DNA from: Naegleria gruberi
Taxonomy: Eukaryota
Length of the DNA stretch: 64,000 nucleotides
Strand: one strand, 5' to 3'
Assembly (NCBI GenBank): GCA_000004985.1
Contig: GG738873.1
Position 1 is the stretch's first letter, and each line of letters begins with the position of its first letter. The notes under the pieces were generated by a model. The model saw only the letters and a program-made list of their open reading frames with translations, did no database searches and was not told the DNA's origin. The position numbers were made by a program, and so were the translations under genes. Positions 10,470-24,737 of the stretch are shown piece by piece.

Positions 10470-12830
10470 ATGTTGAAACGATTCCTCAGTGCTAGTGTTG
10501 CTCATCATCACTATTCGAACACAACCTCATCATCAACAATACTCTCATCGGTAATTCCTTCAGGTAAAAATTTTGCCAATAATGCCTCTTCATTAGTATT
10601 AAATTTGAGAAATTATTCTTCGTCATCTTCTCAAGATAAGAAAGTTTCATCTCTAAAACACACAACACGTCAAAAGGATATTAAAAGTAATCAAGATAGT
10701 ACGGATTCTCTCGGAAATATTATGTTTGAATTACCAAGTGATAAAATCAGAAATGTAGGAATTATTGCTCATATTGATGCTGGAAAAACAACAACAACTG
10801 AAAGAATGCTTTATTATAGTGGATATAGTTCTCATTTGGGAAATGTTGATGATGGTGATACAATTACTGATTATATGCCACAAGAACAAGAAAGAGGTAT
10901 CACCATTACAAGTGCTGCAATTACATTTAAATGGAAGGATCATAGAGTTAATTTAATTGATACTCCTGGTCACGTTGACTTTACTTTTGAAGTGGAAAGA
11001 TCAGTGAGTGTTTTGGATGGTGCTGTTGCAATTTTTGATGTTGTCAATGGTGTGGAAGCTCAAAGTAAGACAGTTTGGAGACAAGCAGATAGATATAATG
11101 TACCAAGAATTGTTTACATGAATAAGATGGATAAAATTGGAGCTAATTTTGAAACAGCAATTGAAACCTTGTTGGAAAGATTGCCAAGTTGTCCAACCCC
11201 AATTCCTATTCAATTACCTAGTGGAACAGAAGATGCTTTCAATTCAGTTTTTGATTTGATTGAATTGAAGGAATATGTTTTCACAGGTGATGAATCTAGA
11301 ACTTATAACATTAAACCAATTCAGGAAAAGGATTTAGCAAGAGTTACGGAAGCAAGAGAAACAATGATTGATACTATTGCTAGTCTTGATGATGAATTAG
11401 GAGAAAAATATTTAAACGAGGAAGAAATTACATCTGAGGATATTCACAATGCTGTCAGAAGAGTTACAATTGAGAGAAAGGGTATTCCAATTTTCTGTGG
11501 AAGTTCATTGAAGAATAAGGGAGTTCAACAAGTTATGGATGGTATTGTGAGATATCTTCCTGGTCCAAAAATTGATGAAGCTTCAAAGCAAAGAGAATTG
11601 AATGCCTTTGCCTTCAAGGTTATTAACGATGTACAAAGAGGGTTATTGGTATTCGTTAGAGTTTATAGTGGTTCTGTTGATATCACTAAATCTCCAGCAA
11701 TTTTCAATCACTCAAAGAATCAAAAGGAAAGAATTGGTAAAGTTTATCAAATGCATGCCAACGTTCCTCAAGAAGTCAAGAAAATCTCAGCTGGTAACAT
11801 TGGTGTCCTTGTTGGTTTGAAAGAAACAGGTACAGGTGATATTCTTGTTGCTAAACAAGGATCCAAGACTGACCCGTCAATTCCACAACTTTCTGTTCCA
11901 AAACCTGTTTTCTTCTGTTCAATAGAGGCTGAAAATAGTGCAGATCAAGATGCTCTCGATAATGCCTTGTCAATTATGCAAAAGGAAGACCCAAGTTTAC
12001 AAATTACAAATAATGAAGAAACCAATCAAACACTTGTGAGTGGTATGGGTGAATTGCATTTGGAAATTATTAAGGATAGAATTTTAACAGAATACGGTAT
12101 CAATGTTGAAATGGGTGAGGTACAAATTTCATACAGAGAAACACTTACTGTCGAATCACCAGTCACATATTTGGAATTTGATAAGAAACTCACCACTGGA
12201 AAGAGACTTTATGCTAGGTTGTGGATTAAAGTTGGTCCTGCCGAATCTGGTGTAGGAAATAACGTCGAGTTTGATTGGGATGAGGATAAATGTACTCCAG
12301 ACATGAAGACTATCAAGAAATTTGAAAAATCCATTAGATATGGTCTTGAAAGTAGTTTCATGAGAGGTGCTCTCTTGGGATATCCAATCGAAGAAATCAA
12401 GGTTACAGTTGTTGGAGCATCAGTTTTGGATGAGAATAGAGAACAAATCGTTGTAGGAGAAGAATTACAAAATCAATCATTTATTCAATGTGCCCACTCA
12501 TTGTTTACTAAGATTTTGAAGGACAATGAACAGAGTGCCAGACTTTTGGAACCATATATGAATTTGGAAATTGAAACAGATAGAGCATATATTGGTACAA
12601 TTATGTCAGATTTGACAGGTTCTAGAAGAGCTAAGATTAAGGGTATGCAAGCTAGAAATGACCTCACAGTTATTTCAGCAGAAGTACCACTCAGTGAAAT
12701 GATTGGATACAGTTCTCATTTGAGATCACTCACATCTGGTCAATGCCACTATCATATGGACTTTGCTAGATATGAAACTTTACAACAAGAATATCAAAGA
12801 AAGCTCATTACAAAACTGAGAGGTTATTAG
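10470..12830 (+). CDS. GFM2: Mitochondrial elongation factor G2 / ribosome-releasing factor 2 (GFM2-like)
   Basis: G-domain motifs AHIDAGKTTTTERMLYYSG, GNVDDGDTITDYMPQEQERGITI, DTPGHVDFTFEVERS, NKMD. Full five-domain EF-G length. N-terminal MLKRFLSASVAHHH presequence. First ATG at 10470 (ORF called from TTG at 10452). Ends in TAG. Confidence 0.85.
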   Translation: MLKRFLSASVAHHHYSNTTSSSTILSSVIPSGKNFANNASSLVLNLRNYSSSSSQDKKVSSLKHTTRQKDIKSNQDSTDSLGNIMFELPSDKIRNVGIIAHIDAGKTTTTERMLYYSGYSSHLGNVDDGDTITDYMPQEQERGITITSAAITFKWKDHRVNLIDTPGHVDFTFEVERSVSVLDGAVAIFDVVNGVEAQSKTVWRQADRYNVPRIVYMNKMDKIGANFETAIETLLERLPSCPTPIPIQLPSGTEDAFNSVFDLIELKEYVFTGDESRTYNIKPIQEKDLARVTEARETMIDTIASLDDELGEKYLNEEEITSEDIHNAVRRVTIERKGIPIFCGSSLKNKGVQQVMDGIVRYLPGPKIDEASKQRELNAFAFKVINDVQRGLLVFVRVYSGSVDITKSPAIFNHSKNQKERIGKVYQMHANVPQEVKKISAGNIGVLVGLKETGTGDILVAKQGSKTDPSIPQLSVPKPVFFCSIEAENSADQDALDNALSIMQKEDPSLQITNNEETNQTLVSGMGELHLEIIKDRILTEYGINVEMGEVQISYRETLTVESPVTYLEFDKKLTTGKRLYARLWIKVGPAESGVGNNVEFDWDEDKCTPDMKTIKKFEKSIRYGLESSFMRGALLGYPIEEIKVTVVGASVLDENREQIVVGEELQNQSFIQCAHSLFTKILKDNEQSARLLEPYMNLEIETDRAYIGTIMSDLTGSRRAKIKGMQARNDLTVISAEVPLSEMIGYSSHLRSLTSGQCHYHMDFARYETLQQEYQRKLITKLRGY

Positions 12831-12842
12831 GCTCTTTATAAA

Positions 12843-13784
12843 TTAAATACTTTCTTTTTGATACTCTTCTGTTGTTACTCGTTTGTAATTAGATCCACAA
12901 ATTATACAAGAAACGGAAAATCTTTTAGCCCAAGGTGACAGTGGCATGTAGGTGCTTATTCTGCCACAGAACTTGCATTCCTTAATTGGCATGCTATTAC
13001 TTGGAGTACTAGATTGTCTCTTTTGTGGGAATTCAACAATAGGACCTTTCTTAGTGATACAATCATAAAACTTTTTGTGTGGTAAAATATCATACCCTTG
13101 TTTGAAAAGGAATCCTCTAAAGTTAGGTGCAAGATCCAAAAACTCAATATATTGTTGTGTTGAATATTGACAAATATACTCATTAGATCCAAAATTAGAG
13201 GATTGTAAAATTGATTTCCATGTTTCAACATCCAAATAATTATTGGTCTTTAGAGCAGGGTTAGCTGCCAAAGACCAATAAAATTGAACAACTTGTGTAA
13301 TTGTTTGTTGACTGAATATGAATGAATCCACCTTGTTGTGTGTAACAACTACTGAAATTAAATACGCATAGAATGATAATTCCTTCAGAACATCCATTGA
13401 AATCTTGGATTTAATGAGTGAACTCTTTAAATTGCTGTTAATCAAAATGATAATTAGCAAACGTACCAAAAAGTATACAGAAATAGCGTGCTTTTTTTCA
13501 GTGGCTGGTTCATTAACAAGATCAGTGGCTGCTTTCTTTACGAACAGCAATAATCGAATACACCAGTTAGCAAATGGAGCAAATGGTAAAAGAACATTAG
13601 GATCCCTAAAGTTTCCAACCTTTTCATCAATAATCTTTTTAACATTCTCAAATGATGCATCATTAAGCTGTTTATCAAAATTAGGAACAACTCTGTCATT
13701 TCTAATGACCTCTGTGATAGTCTTTGCATATACCATAGATTGCATGTAAATACTGTGACCTCTCTTTGCAGCACTTGCACTCAT
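12843..13784 (-). CDS. Hypothetical protein with C-terminal CxxC...CxxC zinc ribbon
   Basis: 313-aa ORF with real ATG. C-terminal CKFCGRIS...CIICGSNY. Stop is 12 nt from the EF-G stop (convergent). Confidence 0.5.
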   Translation of the reverse strand: MSASAAKRGHSIYMQSMVYAKTITEVIRNDRVVPNFDKQLNDASFENVKKIIDEKVGNFRDPNVLLPFAPFANWCIRLLLFVKKAATDLVNEPATEKKHAISVYFLVRLLIIILINSNLKSSLIKSKISMDVLKELSFYAYLISVVVTHNKVDSFIFSQQTITQVVQFYWSLAANPALKTNNYLDVETWKSILQSSNFGSNEYICQYSTQQYIEFLDLAPNFRGFLFKQGYDILPHKKFYDCITKKGPIVEFPQKRQSSTPSNSMPIKECKFCGRISTYMPLSPWAKRFSVSCIICGSNYKRVTTEEYQKESI

Positions 13785-13827
13785 ACTAATTCAATATTGT
13801 TAATAGTTCATGAAAATCCCAAATAAC

Positions 13828-15384
13828 TTACAAATAAATAGAAAATATAAACATTTCTAAAGAATAAATATAAATAACATTCTTGGAAGAATTTTCCAAT
13901 TTCAATCTGCATTGTTCAAATTCTGCTCCAATAGTTGTAATTTCCTCAGGAGACACCAATTTTTTGATTGATGCAAATAAATCCCATCTGTCGTAATTGT
14001 TAATAAGACATAAATTAAGCATATTGATATACTCTGCATTGGATCTCTTTTGTAATGGGAAGAGTCTAACTTTCATAGATGAATCTAAAACAGCAATAAC
14101 ACAACAATTTGGGGATATATCTGCATCACAAATTGTGGTATCAACAGGTTCCTCTGTCAGTTTTCTCTTTTTTGGTAATGGATTATTAATAGGTTCTTCC
14201 AATATTAATTCATCAGTTTCTCCTTTGGTATCTATTGTTTGGTAGTGCTTGAAGGACATTATTTCTGCAGCATATTTATATACATGGACTTTAGTGGTAT
14301 CTGTAAATAATAAATAATTTCCATCAATTGAAGTTTTAAATGAGAGCATTTCGGCTTTAAGAGGAGTAAAGTGCTTATCTTCTCTCCAATATTTTAGGGC
14401 GTGGGTTATATCGTCTTTAGAGTCTTTGGAATCTTTAAATTGCAAGCTTTGATCTCCTGCACTGGTCATTACTGCTTTCAAGCTCATTCTTTTAGGGTAT
14501 TGGTGATAAATCATATATTTGTTATCTTGGGTCTGTATCATGATCTTATTCTTATATGGAATCAAGTATAGACCTGCAACAAGACCATCTATTGAGAAGC
14601 AAGTTCTCGAAATTAATATTAAATTATTTGGAAGGGTAGTATCTACATTTCTACCTCTTTCAATGGCTAACTTTGCAACATGAATAGTTGAACTATCTCT
14701 TTCTGAACATATTACACAAATATTTCCATCTTCCAATATTGTGAAATCTGCACAAATAAGTCCATTTAAATTCAATTGAATACTAGAAGTTACCCATTTG
14801 TATTTTGAATGGTCATAGAAATAAAATAAAACCTCTCCATGGCTTGTGATGGCAATAAATGAACGAGTTCCACTTGGTAAATTAACAATTGATGAATATT
14901 TTCGGGTGTATCTAGCTTCCAATTCTGGTGAATCATTATTAATTGTTGTATTGTCATTAAGATAAGTAATAACATTGTCACACCATTTACAACACAATAC
15001 ATTCTCGCAATAAAAAGTCTTTCTTAAATGATAATCGTTAACACATTGATTGACACATTTCCACAAAGTAATAGTATTGTATCTATCATGAGACAATAAC
15101 ATTCCAACTCCTTGAGAAAGTTGCCAATTTAATCCTCTAACTTCATCATACAAATGATTTGACGGAATTTTCTCCACTTTTGATGGTTCATTCGGATCCA
15201 CAACAAAAATCTTGTTCTGTGTAGAATAGGATAACATGTTATGCTTGTTGAAGGAAATTACTCCCTTTGGTACAAATTTACTTAGTTCGATCGGTTTTTC
15301 ATCATCAATAGTACCATTCATCAAACTTTCCGTTCCATTAGCAACAAGAGAAAAACAACTTCCCTCTTGTGATGATCCGAGCAT
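13828..15384 (-). CDS. Hypothetical protein (518 aa)
   Basis: Long uninterrupted ORF with real ATG and codon usage matching neighbouring genes. No confident family assignment. Confidence 0.5.
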   Translation of the reverse strand: MLGSSQEGSCFSLVANGTESLMNGTIDDEKPIELSKFVPKGVISFNKHNMLSYSTQNKIFVVDPNEPSKVEKIPSNHLYDEVRGLNWQLSQGVGMLLSHDRYNTITLWKCVNQCVNDYHLRKTFYCENVLCCKWCDNVITYLNDNTTINNDSPELEARYTRKYSSIVNLPSGTRSFIAITSHGEVLFYFYDHSKYKWVTSSIQLNLNGLICADFTILEDGNICVICSERDSSTIHVAKLAIERGRNVDTTLPNNLILISRTCFSIDGLVAGLYLIPYKNKIMIQTQDNKYMIYHQYPKRMSLKAVMTSAGDQSLQFKDSKDSKDDITHALKYWREDKHFTPLKAEMLSFKTSIDGNYLLFTDTTKVHVYKYAAEIMSFKHYQTIDTKGETDELILEEPINNPLPKKRKLTEEPVDTTICDADISPNCCVIAVLDSSMKVRLFPLQKRSNAEYINMLNLCLINNYDRWDLFASIKKLVSPEEITTIGAEFEQCRLKLENSSKNVIYIYSLEMFIFSIYL

Positions 15385-15489
15385 TTTTTTTAATTAATTT
15401 GAAATTATTTTTTTATAAAACTTAAATACAATTTTAAATCTATTAATAGTTGTCAATAGTTGAATGAAAAAGTATTGAAATTTTTGGAG

Positions 15490-16506
15490 CTAACTAATGT
15501 TTTGAGTGGGATAATTAACAATCTTGCTTAAAATAGTGGCAAATTGAATGCATTCTTGAACTGAGTTTGGATTGCAGCTCACTATTGAAACCATATTCGA
15601 TTCTCCAAAGAAATCACCTTTTAAACTCTTGACAAATGAACATCCTTTGAGTGGTATGATGGGTTGTTGACATAGATCCAATGATCTTGCAATAGGCTTC
15701 AATTGTTTAAACACACAAGTCAATTCTTCACATTGATAATTGACCATTCGAATAAATTTCAATTGACTCTTATGAATGTGCTCTTTCTTTTCATTTTCAT
15801 CCATGATTCTCCTATCCACTTCTATTAAAATATAATTTGACATTGTAAATGATGACGTTTCCTTTTGATTGTAGAAACAAGATGTGTTAAATAAACATCT
15901 TTCCAAAAATTCCAATGAATCTTTCAAATTGAAAAGTGAAATCTTTGAATAGCCGTGAAGAATTGGTTCCTCATTGCTCTGAAATTTAATTACAGGAAAG
16001 TTTGCACTTAAAATATCATGAAATCGTTCACCTGTTAAGCAGAGACAAGATGCTTTGAGTGAAACTGAACTTTTCTGATCAGAAAATAAATGTTCAAACG
16101 ATTGTTGTATCATTCCATTCATATCATCATGTGTATTTCCCATCATTCTATGTCATTCATAACCAATTAATAGAAGAAAATATTAGAATTCAATTTGAAA
16201 GTAATCTTACATGTTCATATGGCTGACATCCTCTACAATCATAACAGTTCCATTGTATCCATGGAGTGTTTTATCAATGGTTGGCATGATTGCTTCTTTG
16301 AAATATATATTACAATTGACAGGACTTCATTCTTAAGAGAATTAGAATTTCTTGAAAACTTACTCTTCCACAACTCCATCATATTGATATTCTCTATTAT
16401 TTTTCAAGTCAACAATGCACTTTCCCTTGTTGTCCTTAATTTCCATGTCTGTCAATTGATTACCATCATAAACATGCAAGACAACCACTGCTTGACTTTT
16501 AGACAT
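15490..16506 (-). CDS. Kinesin motor-like protein with degenerate ATP-binding motifs (pseudo-kinesin A), 3 exons: complement(join(15490..16147,16211..16324,16364..16506))
   Basis: Kinesin-fold signatures (HGYNGTV, GMIQQSFEHLF, C-terminal PLKGCSFVKSLKGDFFGESNMVSIVSCNP...ILSKI matching [22 protein letters not shown]). P-loop GQTGSGKT replaced by IVEDVSHMN; switch II DLAGSE replaced by RMVNYQ. Introns 16325..16363 and 16148..16210 (GTAAGT/GTAAGA donors). Confidence 0.6.
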
Positions 16507-16554
16507 TTTTTAATTGTGAAGAGATTAAAAAGTGTGACACATTGTGACTTGTTA

Positions 16555-17641
16555 TTAATGTTTATGAACAGATTCTGTTGCAATATGCTTCTTAGGATGA
16601 TTAACAATCTTTGAGAATGATGAAGCAATTTGAATAGTTTTCAAAATTTGTTGTTTTGTTGTTCCAATACTAAATACGATTGATGTATTCGAATTGCCGC
16701 CTAAACCTTCTCTCAAGCTATGTGTCAGAACATTATCTCTGTATGGAATGAATTTTTCACCTGTTGTCAATCTGTTTACCACAGACAAAAACTGATCATA
16801 AGTTTTTGCCATTTCCAATCCTAGTTTGGAAGTTTCCAAAAAGTAATTCATAATATCCACAAACTTGATTTCACTCTTCAAAATTTGAAAACTTTTATCC
16901 TCTTCCTTCCATTCTCTTTGCTCAATTTCAATAATCATATAATAAACAGCATGTCTAGTATTTGTCGATCCATGTTGAGTAGCAAAAAGTGTTGAATGTT
17001 TCATTCCAGCATTCACCAATTCATTCACAACTTTCATTGAGAGAACAGGAACTCTTTTCAATCCTTCAAAGCAAAGTGTCTTGTTAGGTAATTCCTTAAA
17101 TTTAACTCTCGGAGTTGTTGAATCCAAAACATCATAAAATAATTGATTACACAACATTAGGGAGGAGGCATAAATTGTGACTTGATCGTGCTTTCCTTCA
17201 ATCATTTCAAACAACTTTTCAAAGGTGTGAAATATTAAGCCCTTCTCATGACGCATTAATCTGTTTATGGGATAAAGAGCATTAAGAAAATTTAGATAAT
17301 TACAAAGCTAGATATAAATACTAACGTTTTTCTATGAGCCTCATCTTCAAATAATAAAACAGTTCCATCAAAACCTAACATGGCTTGTTCAACAATTGGT
17401 TTCACAGCAACATTAAACAATTCTGAACAATCTACAGGACTAACTCATCCGATATAAATAATAACAAAATCCATTCATTCAATGTGTATACTTACTCTTC
17501 AAATACTCCATCAAAAGGATACTCAGTTGTTGGCCACGTATTAAAATCTCTCATAATTTTCCCTTCCTTAATGCCCATATTAATGTCATCCGAGTAGTCA
17601 TTCCAATCAAAAGCTTGAATATACACTGAAAGTGGTTTCAT
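16555..17641 (-). CDS. Kinesin motor-like protein with degenerate ATP-binding motifs (pseudo-kinesin B), 3 exons: complement(join(16555..17260,17326..17439,17496..17641))
   Basis: Paralogue of 15490..16506 with the same exon structure (exon 2 is 114 nt in both). FDGVFED...GFDGTVLLFEDEAHRKT where kinesins have GYNGTIFAYGQTGSGKT; FIPYRDNVLTHSLREGLGGNSNTSIVFSI matches the kinesin neck-linker/alpha6 region; switch II is DIMNYF. Confidence 0.65.
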
Positions 17642-17805
17642 TTTTTTTTAAATTGTGAAATCTCCAAATTAGTTCTTCCTTAGTGTTAAATTTGGAAGTT
17701 CCACATAAGGGCATCATCTTTTCAATTTGCCTTAAATTGATCCAAATTAAAAACAAGATAAAAAATTGGTGTGTTTCAGATTTTGTGATCAAGTAGCAAG
17801 CATGC

Positions 17806-19176
17806 ATGGATCCAACCAATAATACTGTAGCAATTATTGTAAAGACATTAAAGATATTACAAAATGTATTTAAATATTTAAAAAATTCTATTTTTATTCA
17901 AAAACACAAATTAAAAAAAATGGCATTAGCGTTCCTCAATCTAAAATCCTTTCACCCTCTGAACAAGCAAAATCAGAGAAAGAAATGGATAGCGGAACAA
18001 CAAGAAAAAGCAAAACGTAAACTTGCCGAACAACGTATCAAAGAATTAGCAGATGAACAAGAATTATATAAAGAGGAAAAAGTCAAGCTAATACAAAACA
18101 AGGTAACAAAGAAGCAATCATCAGAATCTCAGGCTGAGATGAGGAGAAGAAAGCAAATGTTACATGCCAAACCATCTGATATGAATAATAATAATATTAG
18201 TAATAATACTAGTAATAATGATGTATTTGTTCCTTCATCAACATCACAACAGGTTCAACCAATAATCAATCAAGAAAAAAAGGAAAATACCAAGGAAGCT
18301 GAATTTTCAGACTTTGTAAGAAGTTCGGATGATGTTAAATCTAATAAGAAATCTAGGAGAGGAGGAAGAAGGAGAGGAGGAAATGGTAAAGATAAGGAGG
18401 AAACTGTTGCTTCATCAACCAAATCTATTGCATTTATTTATCAACAACCACCAGGATTGAAGGATTGTTTGGAAAAGGAAAAAAAGTTAAAGGAAAGAGA
18501 ACAAGTGGAAAAGAGAGAACAAGAAGAAAGAAATAGGAATATTGCTAAAACAAAGGAAGCTTTTGGAATGACGGATAATTCTCTTTCAATTCCTTCAATA
18601 ATGAAAATTCAATCTAAAACTGTAAATAATGAAAATACCACTACAATAGTTGAGGAAGAACCAAAAGTTATTGTGGAAGCACCACTGGAAAATCCAGATT
18701 CTGAAAAGCCAAAAGACAGACGTCTATTGTCTGATGTGGAAAAATTCCCAATCCTCAAACACGCTCCAACAGAAGGTGGTTACACAGAATTTGTGAAAGT
18801 CAAACACAAACCTTTTGGTATTGAACTCAGAAATGTCAGATGTACCAAATGTGGTGAGTTTGGTCACACAAACATAGATAGAGAATGTCCATTATTTGGC
18901 ATTAGTCGTGTGGATGCAGATAGACTTAATAGAGAAGATCCATTACTTCAAATGAAGCAGATAGAAGAACCAGAGGAACCAAACAATGATGCAGTTTTTG
19001 AGGAATACTTTACTCAGGAAGATACAAATCCTGAGGAGCTTTACGAGATTTTGGTGACAATGTCATCTGAAGATAAGAAGAAACTTTTCAAGAAATACAA
19101 GAAACTCAAATCAAAACTAAAGAAAAGAAGGGATAAGAATGAAGAAACGGAAGGAGCTAAAAAGAGAAAACTGTAA
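17806..19176 (+). CDS. Cir_N-domain protein (CIR1/CWC25-like splicing/co-repressor factor) with C-terminal CCHC zinc knuckle
   Basis: MALAFLNLKSFHPLNKQNQRKKWIAEQ and FIYQQPPGL match the Cir_N signature. CTKCGEFGHTNIDRECP is a zinc knuckle. Lys/Glu-rich. Likely start is the ATG at 17920 (AAAAAAAATG context); the ATG at 17806 is also in frame. Confidence 0.7.
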   Translation: MDPTNNTVAIIVKTLKILQNVFKYLKNSIFIQKHKLKKMALAFLNLKSFHPLNKQNQRKKWIAEQQEKAKRKLAEQRIKELADEQELYKEEKVKLIQNKVTKKQSSESQAEMRRRKQMLHAKPSDMNNNNISNNTSNNDVFVPSSTSQQVQPIINQEKKENTKEAEFSDFVRSSDDVKSNKKSRRGGRRRGGNGKDKEETVASSTKSIAFIYQQPPGLKDCLEKEKKLKEREQVEKREQEERNRNIAKTKEAFGMTDNSLSIPSIMKIQSKTVNNENTTTIVEEEPKVIVEAPLENPDSEKPKDRRLLSDVEKFPILKHAPTEGGYTEFVKVKHKPFGIELRNVRCTKCGEFGHTNIDRECPLFGISRVDADRLNREDPLLQMKQIEEPEEPNNDAVFEEYFTQEDTNPEELYEILVTMSSEDKKKLFKKYKKLKSKLKKRRDKNEETEGAKKRKL

Positions 19177-19185
19177 TAATATTTA

Positions 19186-21447
19186 TTAAAACACTAAGGC
19201 AAATACAATAATAAATCCTGCTAACACAATAAGAGAAATAATTGTGATTAAAATTCTTCTCTTCCAAACAGATCTGTGTTTGATCTTTGTGTGATAGGTG
19301 TGAATAATACTATCAATAATTCTTCTGATACCAGTCCACAAACTAGACAATGGTTGGAAATTTTCTTTCAAACTCATGAGATAGTCTTTAAATGTGGAAG
19401 TTGTGGAAACTGCCTGTCCAGAAGCCATAGCTACATTTGTTACTACTTCTGTAGCTTTTTCAAGTTCTTTCTTATATTTGAATAAGCTACCAATTTTAGT
19501 GAATGGATAAGCTACCATTTGGAAGAATCCTACAATTACATTGAATAAAACCTTAAACAATGTAACAGGATATGAAATAATAGCTGAAATAGCAGTAAAA
19601 AGCTCAACAACAAAATCTATCAACTCTGTACAAACAAATGATATCAATTGAACAGGAACTTGAATTGCAGCATATAATCCTGTACCAAATAGAGCAATAA
19701 ACTTTGCAATTGCTGAGCAAGAAACTGATAAAAAGTTGAACAGTGGCAATAACAAATGGTTGTACAATTGTATAAATGGATAAACAATACCATTTCCAAG
19801 TAAAACCAAAAAGTCTGCCAAGGGTTTAAATATCTGAGTAATGAAATGTGACAAATTAACAATTAACTTCCATAGGGGCGTAAATAGAGCAACAATAGGT
19901 GCAAATAGTGAGAAGAATATTAGAGATGCCTCCCATACTTTCGAGAATACTAGTGGAATAAGCAACATTACTTTGTTCTTGATTAGTGGCTCAAAGTAAG
20001 AGGCTACAGGTCCAAATAATGCTCTAAGGGCACCTCCAACAATTGGAAGATTCTTATACAAATCGTAAAAGCCCCATATCAAACTGATTACAATATAAAT
20101 ATTTACAAGAGTAGTAATAACTTCTCTAACTCGGTGATTATAATACACTGGAATACCATATCTATTTACAATTGTGGCCCAGGTAGGAAGGCCAACAATA
20201 GCAAGTTTTAACAATCGTTTGTCTGATGAAAGCAATGCACCATCCATATATTTAGCGCTATCTTCTCTACTCAAGTAAAGGAAGAAGAAGTTAGATTGCA
20301 TTGTAGATGGTGCTTGCTCTGGAACTCGTTTAGTTTCAATAACTATAATATCATCAGAGAGAGGCGAATGTTGGAATTCAATACCTGTTATTTCATCAAA
20401 AGGAATAGTTAATCTTTGCTCACTTTTTGATTCAATTATACTATCATAGGAGAATATAATTCTCTTTTTGTAAATATCTATCAACACTCTAATTGTGTGA
20501 GTAAGAGTCTTTTGCCATCCTTTAATGAACCAATCACAAGTAGTTAATCTAACAGCATTGAATTCATATTGACCTACACTCTGAATATCTGAAGTATTTG
20601 TTAGGGATAACTTGTTTCTCAATTCTCTAGAATCTTCAAATCTATCAAGTTTAAATTGAGCAATTGGATCAACAGCTTGATTAGTTTGATATCTGGTATG
20701 TCTAAATCTCTTAATATGATCCACGTGTTTATACATAAAACTGTACTGATGAGGAAGAGGAGTAGTTACTTGCTCCCCAACAGCAGAGCTTGTTTGAGCT
20801 CTAACACTCTTGTTTGGTGTTACAGCACTGGCTTTTCTTCTACGTGTGGATACATCAAGAGTTAATGGTGATGGAATGACAAGTTGATCTTCTGGTGTTT
20901 TTGGTGAGTTTCTTCTAGAGTTTTTGAGTGGCTTAATTGGTGATAAATTCAATGAAGGTGTTGTTACATTTGTAGAGTTTTGTTTTGATGGAGAAGGAGA
21001 AATAAAGGAAGATGATTTGGTAACAGTACCAGGAGTGTGAAAAAGTGTTGAAGGTGAATCCAATATTTCACTGTCAGAATGATGGGTATCTTGTTCTTCC
21101 TCTTCCTCTTCATAATCATCCTCATCAAATTCATCATATTCGTCATCACTCAAGTCATCCGAGGTTATTATCGAAGGAGTGGTTATTAAATTTGAAGAAT
21201 TATACTCTGGAATAGAAAATGTAGAATTGGAATTAATGTTTGTTGATATAATAGGTGTTGTTTCTGCAGGAATGATTGGAGTTTCATCGGTGCATGGTTT
21301 TACTCTCCTTCTAAAAGTGCTCATCTTGTTGGTCAGAGAGTCAAAAATTCGTGATGATGAAAGAAATGATGCTGTACTTGTTATTATTTTGTTATTATCG
21401 ACGTGTTTAGGAGGATCAGCAATTAGTAGTTTTGTGGGTGTTTGCAT
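19186..21447 (-). CDS. Multi-pass membrane protein with Ser/Thr/Asp-rich N-terminal region (hypothetical)
   Basis: 754-aa ORF. C-terminal half is a series of hydrophobic helices. First ATG at 21447 (ORF called from TTG). Stop lies 9 nt from the stop of 17806..19176. Confidence 0.55.
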   Translation of the reverse strand: MQTPTKLLIADPPKHVDNNKIITSTASFLSSSRIFDSLTNKMSTFRRRVKPCTDETPIIPAETTPIISTNINSNSTFSIPEYNSSNLITTPSIITSDDLSDDEYDEFDEDDYEEEEEEQDTHHSDSEILDSPSTLFHTPGTVTKSSSFISPSPSKQNSTNVTTPSLNLSPIKPLKNSRRNSPKTPEDQLVIPSPLTLDVSTRRRKASAVTPNKSVRAQTSSAVGEQVTTPLPHQYSFMYKHVDHIKRFRHTRYQTNQAVDPIAQFKLDRFEDSRELRNKLSLTNTSDIQSVGQYEFNAVRLTTCDWFIKGWQKTLTHTIRVLIDIYKKRIIFSYDSIIESKSEQRLTIPFDEITGIEFQHSPLSDDIIVIETKRVPEQAPSTMQSNFFFLYLSREDSAKYMDGALLSSDKRLLKLAIVGLPTWATIVNRYGIPVYYNHRVREVITTLVNIYIVISLIWGFYDLYKNLPIVGGALRALFGPVASYFEPLIKNKVMLLIPLVFSKVWEASLIFFSLFAPIVALFTPLWKLIVNLSHFITQIFKPLADFLVLLGNGIVYPFIQLYNHLLLPLFNFLSVSCSAIAKFIALFGTGLYAAIQVPVQLISFVCTELIDFVVELFTAISAIISYPVTLFKVLFNVIVGFFQMVAYPFTKIGSLFKYKKELEKATEVVTNVAMASGQAVSTTSTFKDYLMSLKENFQPLSSLWTGIRRIIDSIIHTYHTKIKHRSVWKRRILITIISLIVLAGFIIVFALVF

Positions 21448-22068
21448 TTTCAAAATTGGACGTTTTAATATATTTACAAGGGAAATTGTTTTGCTCCGGA
21501 AGAAAATGCAGCCAAATATTATTAATTTAAATATTTACAAAATATTGATGATTTAAAAGAGAAATGAAGGTTGTTGTATTAATTTCTACTCGTGATACTT
21601 TTTCTAATATGTAATTACAAGTACAAAGTTTTTTATAGCACACACAACAAGAGATTCTCGATTATAACAATATTGGCGCGTGTTTTCTTTTTTTATTGAT
21701 AATGTGTGCACTTGAAGGCATTTTAGAAGCAAGGTTGCTTTTTTCCTTGGGCGGGAATTGAAAAAATATGAATCTTCTGTGTCCGTTGCTCAAAGAAGAA
21801 AAATAGTGCAAGTAAGCAAAGGAAGTCACACCGATGACGTGGTTTTAATTGGTGAGGGATAATGGTAGAATGTGAGATTAGGAAAATTCAAGAGGGATGA
21901 TTCAAATTTGAAGGAAAATTATTTACCTTATTATTGAAGATGTGTAAAACACGTTTTCTTATTGTAAAGAGCTTGATACATTCTGTTCACTGTAGTTTGA
22001 TCTCATTAAATTGAATAATATTGTTTAGATTTCTAATAAATAGAGAGCTAATTGTTTATTCCTTCAAT

Positions 22069-23238
22069 CTATTCGTTTGAAGGAAGTTTAATGGCACTTT
22101 CAACTTTTTGTCTACAAATTGGACACTTGTTTGTTTGCTCTTTCAGTGCAGTTGCACATCCCTCACATAAGGACATGTGACCACAAGGTAAAACAACAGT
22201 ATTAGCCTCTTCAGACATACAAACAACACATAAATTCTCTTCCTCTTCATGATGATGATCATTGGTGGATTGCTGATATATTTCTCCAACTTCAAAAAGT
22301 TCATTTCCAACTACAATTTTCTGTTTGTTGACCTTGATGGAATATGATTGATCATTACCCTGTTGTTCTAAAGAACACAAAGAATACTGTGTAGAGGTGT
22401 CACAAGACAATACCACTACAAGAGGAACGAGTTGAGATTGTAATTCAACTTCTTCATTCTCAACCTGTGGTGGAATATTTGAATATTGTAAATCTTCTCT
22501 ATTCGGGAATTCATTTTTGAAATCAATTAATATATCATTTAAAGTACATTCGACAAAAGCCGATTCATTATAGTCCTTTCTTGTATCATTGTCACTATTC
22601 AAATCCACTCGTGTTTCTTCTTGTGTTGAGTCTAAATTCATAAAGTCTTGATGATGGAATGATTTAGCAGGAATTTCATGACTCAATACTGATACATATG
22701 CAACTCTTCCATCAATCATAATTTCTCTAGCTTTTAAATATACAAATACTTTACATTCTTCAACAAATGAAGACCTAACATTAAATTTAAAAGAAAGTTG
22801 ATAGTGATTTTCTTGATTACTATTTTTAAGCAAAATTGAATTCTTTTGTATATTAATATCATTTCTTAATAACATTGTTTCCTTGAATTCGAATTTTCTA
22901 AATGTCGGTTGATCACTTCCTCCATGAATTGTATTATCAGAAGTGCCTAATAACCCCTCTACACCTCCATAATATCCAAATAAATTCATCAATTCTTCAG
23001 AGTTGTTGGTAGAGAAAAATTCCTGATTCAACAAGCCATCAATAATCATCGGAGCGCCTCCGAATAATAATTGAGGATGAGAATTTGTTGTATTTGATGA
23101 TGGTAATTCACTATTATTTAATGTTGTTGGAGCTGCACCACTTGGTGCATTTTCGTTTTCCGATTGATTTTCCAAATCGTCGTCATCTCTGAGAGTTCGG
23201 TGTTGTTGGTCTTGATGGAAAGTAAGAGTTTGTCCCAT
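22069..23238 (-). CDS. MGRN1 (mahogunin)-like N-myristoylated C3HC4 RING E3 ubiquitin ligase
   Basis: MGQTLTF N-terminus (MGxxxT myristoylation context). C-terminal RING CVVCMSEEANTVVLPCGHMSLCEGCATALKEQTNKCPICRQ. Central region aligns to the MGRN1 SPRY-like segment. Confidence 0.7.
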   Translation of the reverse strand: MGQTLTFHQDQQHRTLRDDDDLENQSENENAPSGAAPTTLNNSELPSSNTTNSHPQLLFGGAPMIIDGLLNQEFFSTNNSEELMNLFGYYGGVEGLLGTSDNTIHGGSDQPTFRKFEFKETMLLRNDINIQKNSILLKNSNQENHYQLSFKFNVRSSFVEECKVFVYLKAREIMIDGRVAYVSVLSHEIPAKSFHHQDFMNLDSTQEETRVDLNSDNDTRKDYNESAFVECTLNDILIDFKNEFPNREDLQYSNIPPQVENEEVELQSQLVPLVVVLSCDTSTQYSLCSLEQQGNDQSYSIKVNKQKIVVGNELFEVGEIYQQSTNDHHHEEEENLCVVCMSEEANTVVLPCGHMSLCEGCATALKEQTNKCPICRQKVESAIKLPSNE

Positions 23239-23471: not shown

Positions 23472-24737
23472 TTAAGCTTTAGGATTTTGAGCGGAACTAG
23501 AAATGGATTTTACAATTTGTTTGATTGCAGCACCTTCTCCAAAACGTAAAATGTAAGGTGCAACTACAGACATGTCAAAAGCACATTGATTTCTCATGTA
23601 ACAGATGGCAATCATTCCTTCAGTATCTCTTTCAGCAGCAGTATTTGTCATTAAACATGGTGTTTCCTTCTCACATCCATAATAGAAAAATTCATGTTTG
23701 CATGTTGTAAAGAGAGATCTACGTCCCAAACCATTCCACTTCTTTTTACATTCAACTTGACATGCAACACATGTTGTATTAGAATATGATGTGAATTGAA
23801 CTTGTGGTAAAGCCAATGAAGTTGGTCCAAGAATACCATTAAATAGTGCAGGAGAATTCATCAATAAATTCAATGCTCCCATTGAAAATTCCATTCTTGA
23901 AGCACCTCCTTTTGGTGATGTAGTTCTAGTGACAGAAATTTGTGTTGAGATTTCATTTGCTGTTGGTGCTGGTGTTGACGAAATAGAACGAAGACTATCC
24001 TTGAGAGCAGTATTTCTATTCTTTGGGCCAATTGAGAGACTGGACTTGGTCTTACTATTCTTGCTGGCAGCTTTACTTTTGGCACTTGTCTTGGAGCTCT
24101 TTGATTTGCTACTGTTCTTTGAAGAAGATTTACTAGAACTCTTTGAGCTCTTACTTGCTGATTTTCCACTTTTTCCACTTTTACCACCACTTTTGCCAGA
24201 ACCCTTTCCACCATTTCTTCCACTTTTTCCACTGGCTCCTTTTCCACCTCTGCCACCTCTTCCTCCAGAGCTGCCACCTCTGCCTCCTCCACCACGTCCA
24301 CCCTTTCCACTAGCTCCATTACCACCTCTGCCTCCAGAACTGCCTCTGCCAGAACCACCTCTGCCTCCTGCACTGCCACCTCTACCACCACGTCCACCAC
24401 CTCTGCCTCCAGAACCACCACGTCCACCTCTTCCACCTCTGCCTCCACCACGTCCACCTCCTCTTCCACCACCTCTGCCTCCACCACCACGACCTCCACC
24501 TCTTCCAAGGACACTGACACCATGTATCATCTCTAAATCTTCATCTTCATGTTTAAGAGTATTCTTTTTGAATGTATCGCTTGAACTAGAACTTGTGGTT
24601 GAGAGAGTTTGTGCACAATTAGGGCGTGAAGCTCTAACATGTCCAACATGTAACAAGGCAATACTTAACACTAACAAAAGTAACAAGCTAGCAATAACTG
24701 AAAACTCTCTTGATAGTTTGTCCTTTCTGATAGTCAT
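23472..24737 (-). CDS. Signal-peptide Gly/Arg-rich (GGRGG)n, Lys/Ser-rich protein with Cys-rich C-terminal domain (intact paralogue)
   Basis: Same architecture as 4888..5944: signal peptide, RPNCAQTLSTTS, DTFKKNTL, long GGRGG array, SKSSK array, C-terminal CVACQVECKKKWNGLG...FYYGCEK. Single uninterrupted 421-aa ORF. Confidence 0.7.
   Translation of the reverse strand: MTIRKDKLSREFSVIASLLLLLVLSIALLHVGHVRASRPNCAQTLSTTSSSSSDTFKKNTLKHEDEDLEMIHGVSVLGRGGGRGGGGRGGGRGGGRGGGRGGRGGRGGSGGRGGGRGGRGGSAGGRGGSGRGSSGGRGGNGASGKGGRGGGGRGGSSGGRGGRGGKGASGKSGRNGGKGSGKSGGKSGKSGKSASKSSKSSSKSSSKNSSKSKSSKTSAKSKAASKNSKTKSSLSIGPKNRNTALKDSLRSISSTPAPTANEISTQISVTRTTSPKGGASRMEFSMGALNLLMNSPALFNGILGPTSLALPQVQFTSYSNTTCVACQVECKKKWNGLGRRSLFTTCKHEFFYYGCEKETPCLMTNTAAERDTEGMIAICYMRNQCAFDMSVVAPYILRFGEGAAIKQIVKSISSSAQNPKA

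Follow-up and report, generated by a model that had tools for sequence, protein, structure and literature searches.

Two adjacent genes in a 64,000-nucleotide stretch of the Naegleria gruberi genome (contig GG738873.1 of assembly GCA_000004985.1; hereafter the window) encode proteins that retain the fold of the kinesin motor domain, with every hallmark of the kinesin ATPase replaced. We term these genes A and B. The reading that we favour, and hold to be reasonably probable, is that they are real, selectively maintained and stand-alone ATPase-dead kinesin heads, which would have arisen through one ancestral loss of the nucleotide site followed by a tandem duplication and would serve as ATP-independent modules of the microtubule system. 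Non-catalytic proteins with the kinesin fold are already known; what is new in A and B is a lineage-restricted, apparently unannotated tandem pair that is both stalk-less and fully ATPase-dead. A selected pair of this kind would show that the fold can persist as a free-standing module.

Kinesin homology and fold

The Pfam kinesin profile PF00225, for which the gathering score is 29.3 bits, matches both proteins above that threshold. A scores 106.8 bits (E = 1.5e-30), its residues 31-297 covering positions 33-316 of the 327 in the profile; B scores 40.4 bits (E = 2.3e-10) over residues 29-219. At E <= 0.01, A matches 138 kinesin sequences from the PDB, led by KIF3B (2.5e-19) and a Giardia kinesin-2 (1.6e-18), and B matches 15 PDB sequences, the best of which is Neurospora kinesin-1 (1.1e-07). 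By sequence, the best-scoring solved structures for A are those of kinesin-2, namely KIF3B (73.0 bits) and Giardia GiKIN2a (70.3 bits); the margin over kinesin-4 (KIF4, 64.3 bits), kinesin-8 (62.7 bits) and kinesin-1 (62.6 bits) is small, however, and the best match of B is a fungal kinesin-1. Descent from kinesin-2 is only a weak lead.

Structures were predicted with AlphaFold2 for the parts encoded by exon 3, that is, 234 amino acids (aa) of A and 218 aa of B or about 70% of each protein, with exons 1-2 left out; the input alignments consisted of 57 kinesins taken from the profile search described below. The resulting models reached a predicted local distance difference test score (pLDDT) of 87.2 and a predicted template modelling (TM) score of 0.81 for A, and corresponding values of 81.0 and 0.79 for B. 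When compared to the PDB using Foldseek, the top matches of both models were all kinesin motors, with a probability of 1.00 and query-normalised TM scores of 0.75-0.84. Sequence match and predicted fold both place A and B in the kinesin superfamily, as had been supposed in the original prediction, a reading of the DNA made ahead of any database search.

Loss of the nucleotide-binding site

The motifs of A and B were read from the HMMER alignments and from a multiple alignment that also included human KIF5B and ten complete motor domains found by the profile search. The P-loop and switches I and II are replaced in both copies (Table 1), which bears out the earlier claim that all three had degenerated. 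Beyond the motifs listed at that time, the RxRP motif of strand beta1, which contacts adenine in kinesins, is lost from both proteins, and loop L11 is shortened in both. A six-frame scan of positions 15300-17900 with regular expressions found none of these motifs in canonical or relaxed form: no P-loop (G.{4}GK[ST]), no switch I, no switch II and no RxRP (R.RP). Hence, no alternative exon join or splicing can restore these motifs, an escape which the original prediction had left open. None of the features of an active kinesin ATPase that were tested is present in A or B, and both are predicted to be incapable of binding or hydrolysing ATP in the manner of a kinesin.

Several of the replacing residues are common to A and B: in the P-loop, E, D and H at positions 1, 2 and 5; in switch II, N-Y where kinesins have G-S; and in RxRP, D where they have P. 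As A and B thus share derived states at motif positions where kinesins do not vary, the simplest reading of the alignment is that the nucleotide site was lost once, before the duplication that gave rise to A and B, and that both copies were kept while they diverged to 29% identity.

Gene structure of the tandem pair

The gene models were obtained by reading the minus strand and joining open reading frame (ORF) fragments at canonical splice sites. A and B emerge as a tandem pair on this strand with three exons each and intact reading frames (321 and 304 codons open). All four introns are of the GT-AG type and of phase 2, both introns lie at homologous positions in the two genes, and exon 2 measures 114 nt in each; the predicted arrangement of same-strand, three-exon paralogues with second exons of equal length is thus confirmed by the splice models. 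The first intron likewise interrupts the same codon in both, in the segment ...DGV(F/V)E-D-PV(D/N)C. This codon, however, specifies Asp (GA|T) in A and B alike, and not the 'Glu/Asp' originally given, which came from reading on into the intron. The second intron falls in the last codon of the former P-loop in both genes. In a blastp comparison the two proteins align over their whole length with 29% identity across 316 columns (E = 2e-39), and a tblastn search found no third paralogue within the window.

The pair is tightly flanked. At about 280 nt from the ATG of A is a gene with a CIR N-terminal domain, transcribed divergently; the ATG of B follows the stop codon of A after 48 nt, and that of the next gene follows the stop codon of B after 105 nt, with an A-rich leader before each. 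Given neighbours this close on both sides, there is no room for further exons of A or B. With only 48 nt between the stop of A and the ATG of B, either the 3' end of the A transcript must overlap the promoter and leader of B or the two genes are co-transcribed. Moreover, an identical 14-mer, TTCACAATTWAAAA, precedes both ATGs (17659-17646 and 16520-16507), and no other exact copy is found in the 64 kb; the 0.05 copies expected by chance are an optimistic figure, as the pattern was derived from its own two sites. The 14-mer may be a shared promoter or leader element of the two genes. The common 14-mer together with the 48-nt spacing suggests that A and B are probably co-regulated.

Purifying selection on both genes

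A 1717-bp contig (k127_348347, here L003) from the ENA metagenome assembly ERZ929261 aligns to positions 17563-15852 of the window at 98.25% identity and covers most of A and half of B. It is the source of a 153-aa protein, P0002, and on this alignment it is an independent allele or strain of the A-B locus. The exons differ by 17 substitutions in 1441 nt, 13 synonymous and four non-synonymous (eight and two, respectively, in A; five and two in B). The four introns differ by 10 events in 223 nt, which is about four times as many differences per base: intron 1 of A has a substitution, an indel of 1 nt and another of 3 nt, as expected for non-coding DNA, intron 2 of A has five substitutions in its 65 nt, and intron 2 of B has two. 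The 48-nt spacer between the genes is identical. Over 284 synonymous and 1156 non-synonymous sites, the ratio of non-synonymous to synonymous change (dN/dS) is about 0.07, and the excess of synonymous changes departs from neutrality with a binomial p = 7e-7; both genes are therefore under purifying selection. The synonymous changes, found in all of the exons that vary, also support the reading frames and the splice model. Together with the faster change of the introns and the derived motif residues that the copies share, these values argue for a maintained family over a decaying pseudogene, as had been proposed from the loss of the motifs in both copies.

The divergence of the metagenome strain from the window is uneven: 1.75% at the A-B locus and 0.6% around a RING-finger gene (contig L001, 21768-24012).

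Retained parts and a possible role

The L12/alpha5 region is the main tubulin-contact region of kinesins. In A this segment, FIPYRDNVLTHSLREGLGGNS, is nearly unchanged from that of a canonical kinesin and has the PYRD...LGGN signature; A also keeps a full-length alpha4 helix in the model and, with KIVNHP, the start of an N-kinesin neck linker. The neck-linker start is likewise kept in B, as KIVNYP, but its sequence at the position of alpha5 is IIPLKGCSFVKSLKGDFFGES, with IIPLKG...FFGES where A has IPYRD...LGGNS. Hence, of the original claim that this block is conserved in the pair, the part concerning A stands and the part concerning B does not. In both proteins the fold starts at about residue 5, and both end 10-15 residues past alpha6, at the neck-linker position and at the same homologous point. 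Neither the alignment nor the protein ends reveal a stalk, coiled coil or tail in A or B. Both have a neck linker that starts with IVN(H/Y)P and are thereby of the N-terminal-motor type.

These features can be joined in one scenario. A kinesin of the N-terminal-motor type would have lost its nucleotide site once and then been duplicated in tandem, with both copies kept, and the products would most likely serve the microtubule system as binding modules that work independently of ATP. Since it keeps the PYRD...LGGN block, alpha4 and the IVNHP neck-linker start, A probably binds microtubules or tubulin, and we infer that it would do so statically, through the retained alpha4/L12/alpha5 face. B has lost the tubulin-contact residues too, so it is more likely to work together with A or with an active kinesin, as a partner or adaptor. 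Any pairing could come about only head-to-head or by way of other proteins.

The microtubules of Naegleria are confined to the spindle and the flagellar apparatus, which are built from separate tubulin sets (PMC9036621; 10.1101/2024.01.08.573270). If they bind microtubules, A and B should accordingly act in one of these two structures, and the same separation makes Naegleria a favourable organism in which to ask what such a module does. A more specific form of this proposal, to which we give only a slender chance, is that A and B form a stalk-less head-to-head heterodimer, an ATP-independent lattice binder specific to mitotic or flagellar microtubules that would either be a structural microtubule-associated protein or offer active motors a brake or landing pad. 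If true, this would be a use of the kinesin fold without a coiled-coil partner, unlike every known case.

Counter-evidence and alternative explanations

Several observations weigh against the view of A and B as maintained heads of the microtubule system. Microtubule binding by A hangs on few retained residues, and A has V and H where kinesin-1 makes contact through K281 and R284. The L11-alpha4-L12 region of B is modelled at a pLDDT of 46-58; furthermore, the input alignments of ordinary kinesins bias both models toward the kinesin fold, and the models omit exons 1-2 with the P-loop remnant. Without a coiled coil there is no evident way for A or B to dimerise with a motor, unlike in all known precedents. 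Conservation is seen within N. gruberi-like DNA and between the two paralogues only: no orthologue in another organism was found among 1.84 billion representative sequences searched with the exon-3 profile, nor in the scans of JGI metagenomes. An exact look-up of spliced A and B in a collection of 15 billion proteins returned no entry. Finally, L003, the sole other allele, carries a 1-nt insertion (T5 -> T6) at about position 16842 of the window (about 730 of L003), in exon 3 of A, and this frameshift would truncate A just past switch II.

The strongest alternative, particularly for B, is that the kinesin fold of both proteins has been repurposed away from microtubules, as a scaffold or as a binder of another ligand or protein, with neither copy touching tubulin. 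We consider this unlikely for the pair as a whole, but it deserves to be taken seriously: B has lost the PYRD/LGGN block in addition to the ATPase motifs, and its alpha4-L12 region models poorly; the inactive head of trypanosome KIN-B is not found at the spindle (PMC10987093); and the amoebae of N. gruberi lack interphase microtubules (PMC9036621), so that a constitutively made protein would have no target there. Such a role would, however, leave it hard to explain why A keeps the most conserved tubulin-contact segment of kinesins, IPYRDNVLTHSLREGLGGNS, nearly intact, unless a constraint from tubulin or something tubulin-like acts on it.

That A and B are decaying, non-functional duplicates with reading frames open by chance is considerably less probable. 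The loss of all catalytic motifs, the absence of both genes from the annotated N. gruberi proteome in the protein collections, the lack of orthologues in the profile search and JGI scans, and the frameshift in L003 would all suit pseudogenes; against this, reading frames of 321 and 304 codons are open across six exons with four canonical introns, the introns, length and fold have been kept at 29% identity between the copies, and the low dN/dS applies to both genes. The three substitutions that follow the frameshift are all synonymous in the original frame, and once the extra T is removed the remaining 95 codons of A are open and encode a protein identical to that of the window. This marks the insertion as either an error of assembly or a mutation of very recent date, and not as a sign of long-term decay.

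Slightly less probable again is that A still binds a nucleotide through a non-canonical site, acting as a switch or slow ATPase. A does keep single residues of the catalytic site, namely the K-T of Walker A (in R-K-T), the R and H of switch I (in TNTR-H) and the D of switch II (in DIMNYF). Yet all three glycines of its P-loop are replaced, the first three positions being acidic (E-D-E), the Gly, Ser and Glu of switch II have become N, Y and F, the adenine-contacting RxRP is gone and L11 is shortened; B, moreover, keeps none of these residues and is equally conserved.

Least credible of all is that A and B are exons of one larger gene, whose product would have either two heads or one head joined to the 518-aa ORF downstream, such that the head-only form is an artefact of the models: the very short gaps on either side of B and a GTTAGC across its stop codon might invite this, but no GT donor in the tail of A joins in frame to an AG before the conserved start of B, an in-frame TAA stands 12 nt before the ATG of the downstream ORF, A, B and their neighbours each start after an A-rich leader (with the 14-mer common to A and B), and the two proteins end at the same homologous point. 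Fusions by splicing of A to B, or of B to the downstream ORF, were rejected, as the sequence offers no in-frame pair of donor and acceptor.

Comparison with known non-catalytic kinesins

The budding yeast proteins Vik1 and Cik1 are partners of the kinesin-14 Kar3 with a non-catalytic motor homology domain that provides a microtubule 'foothold' (PMC4338441). As with A and B, these are two paralogues with a kinesin fold that lacks the elements for ATP binding and hydrolysis, and their domain does bind microtubules (PMC4338441). In Vik1 and Cik1, however, the domain is C-terminal and follows a long coiled coil that dimerises with Kar3, whereas A and B are of the N-terminal-motor type without a coiled coil; A and B also differ in being recognisable as kinesins by sequence, through Pfam. 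No sequence link specific to Vik1/Cik1 was found, the PDB matches listed for A and B being ordinary kinesins only.

Trypanosomes and Naegleria both belong to Discoba. A further parallel is KIN-B of Trypanosoma brucei, an inactive kinesin of the chromosomal passenger complex that pairs with KIN-A: this discoban protein has an N-terminal kinesin domain without the P-loop, switch I, switch II and many of the alpha4-L12 residues that contact tubulin (PMC10987093). It differs in that coiled coils pair it with the active KIN-A, whereas A and B have no coiled coils and are both inactive. Homologues of KIN-A and of KIN-B were reported in kinetoplastids only (PMC10987093). No specific kinship with KIN-B was detected: of the best 150 matches of the profile search, none but the allele fragment P0002 was without the motifs, and no direct alignment to KIN-B was made. 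A second trypanosome protein, TbPH1, was judged inactive by its Walker A motif and is found at a specific microtubule structure, which was called 'a rarely reported occurrence'; it pairs with TbKifX2A (10.1101/2021.09.29.462327). TbPH1 has two Walker A substitutions only and, at 110 kDa, combines a PH domain and a homeodomain-like fold with a coiled coil, whereas in A and B all four motifs are gone and nothing but the head is present.

Cos2, VAB-8, Smy1 and KIF26 are divergent kinesins of animals and fungi with low or no activity, which bind microtubules without normal motility. Unlike A and B, they are large proteins of many domains whose tails carry signalling partners, several have partly canonical motifs, and none is head-only. 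Dead motor domains are seldom reported, and the known cases of Vik1/Cik1, KIN-B and TbPH1 all work through a coiled coil tied to an active kinesin. By analogy, A and B would work most like these non-catalytic kinesin-fold proteins, without the architecture of coiled coil and motor partner that characterizes them; a specific relationship in sequence to any of them was not seen.

Distribution and annotation

The profile used in the database search was built from the exon-3 translations of A and B, and thus did not include exons 1-2 with the P-loop remnant. Against the 1.84 billion representatives it gave one close match, the metagenomic protein P0002 (262 bits); all others scored at most 83 bits. 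No N. gruberi protein matched A or B in this search, though the N. gruberi proteome is part of the collection, and an exact look-up of the exon-3 ORFs of the two genes found no annotated entry. Among the best 150 matches, three besides P0002 failed the regular expression for the motifs; on inspection by eye these were ordinary kinesins or fragments, and they were rejected as motif-less relatives. JGI metagenome contigs were scanned twice with peptide patterns specific to the family, and no relative turned up; the first scan used patterns from the poorly conserved exon 1. A word-indexed search with spliced A at E <= 1e-5 also returned no match; this carries little weight, as the same search missed P0002 with its about 140 near-identical residues.

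Two minus-strand ORFs that bracket the locus have exact matches among annotated N. gruberi proteins: 8518-9957 (XP_002676304.1 / EFC43560.1) and 22069-23238 (XP_002676307.1 / EFC43563.1). Only two accessions, EFC43561 and EFC43562, lie between EFC43560 and EFC43563, and the interval 9958-22068 holds at least six gene-sized ORFs (Table 1). The reference annotation looks incomplete in this interval, and A and B seem to be unannotated in the N. gruberi reference. Both would consequently have been missed by published kinesin inventories that took annotated proteins as their starting point (PMC2867816; 10.1101/2024.01.08.573270).

Table 1. Coordinates of genes A and B, their motif remnants and leader elements, and the ORFs of the surrounding interval
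Feature	Position	Strand	Description
Leader motif of A	17646..17659	-	TTCACAATTTAAAA; ends 5 nt before the ATG of A
Gene A	16555..17641	-	Pseudo-kinesin head, 321 aa, ~37 kDa; exons 17641-17496, 17439-17326, 17260-16555; from splice model and translation
Gene A intron 1	17440..17495	-	56 nt, GTAAGT...AG, phase 2, within Asp49 codon GA|T
Gene A intron 2	17261..17325	-	65 nt, GTTAGT...AG, phase 2, within Thr87 codon AC|A, the last residue of the P-loop remnant
Gene A P-loop remnant	17260..17348	-	EDEAHRKT, residues 80-87, spans intron 2; replaces GQTxxGKT; from alignments
Gene A switch I remnant	16948..16968	-	STNTR-HA, residues 185-191; replaces NxxSSRSH
Gene A switch II remnant	16840..16857	-	DIMNYF, residues 222-227; replaces DLAGSE; followed by L11 shorter by ~9 residues
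Gene A L12/alpha5 block	16690..16749	-	IPYRDNVLTHSLREGLGGNS; pLDDT >90 in the model
Gene A stop	16557-16555	-	TAA
A-B spacer	16507..16554	-	48 nt; leader motif recurs as its final 14 nt (16520-16507), TTCACAATTAAAAA
Gene B	15490..16506	-	Pseudo-kinesin head, 304 aa, ~35 kDa; exons 16506-16364, 16324-16211, 16147-15490
Gene B intron 1	16325..16363	-	39 nt, GTAAGT...AG, phase 2, within Asp48 codon GA|T; place and phase as in gene A
Gene B intron 2	16148..16210	-	63 nt, GTAAGA...AG, phase 2, within Ile86 codon AT|A; place and phase as in gene A
Gene B P-loop remnant	16147..16233	-	EDVSHMNI, residues 79-86, spans intron 2; replaces GQTxxGKT; from alignments
Gene B switch I remnant	15841..15861	-	ETSSFTM, residues 182-188; replaces NxxSSRSH
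Gene B switch II remnant	15733..15750	-	RMVNYQ, residues 219-224; replaces DLAGSE; followed by L11 shorter by ~15 residues
Gene B stop	15492-15490	-	TAG
beta1 RxRP position			QAFD in A, HVYD in B; from alignment
EF-G-like GTPase ORF	10452-12830		In interval 9958-22068
ORFs downstream of B	12843-15384		In interval 9958-22068
CIR-N/zinc-knuckle ORF	17920-19176		In interval 9958-22068
755-aa ORF	19186-21453		In interval 9958-22068

Other features of the window

The window has a G+C content of 31-34%, with dense genes and short GT-AG introns. The minus-strand ORFs 12843-13784 and 13828-15384, which are 43 nt apart, probably belong to a single gene, with a short intron between them; no Pfam match was found for either. 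A 278-bp inverted repeat with 91% identity between its copies is located at 5559-5835 (plus strand) and 23584-23860 (minus strand), inside the ORFs 5087-5944 and 23472-24737, for which no Pfam match was found. Its two copies sit in the two 2-kb bins of the window with the highest G+C (0.38-0.39). In the last part, 60001-64000, the G+C content goes down to 24% and then to 17% at the window end, as against the 31-34% elsewhere; an F-box ORF is located at 62164-63477.

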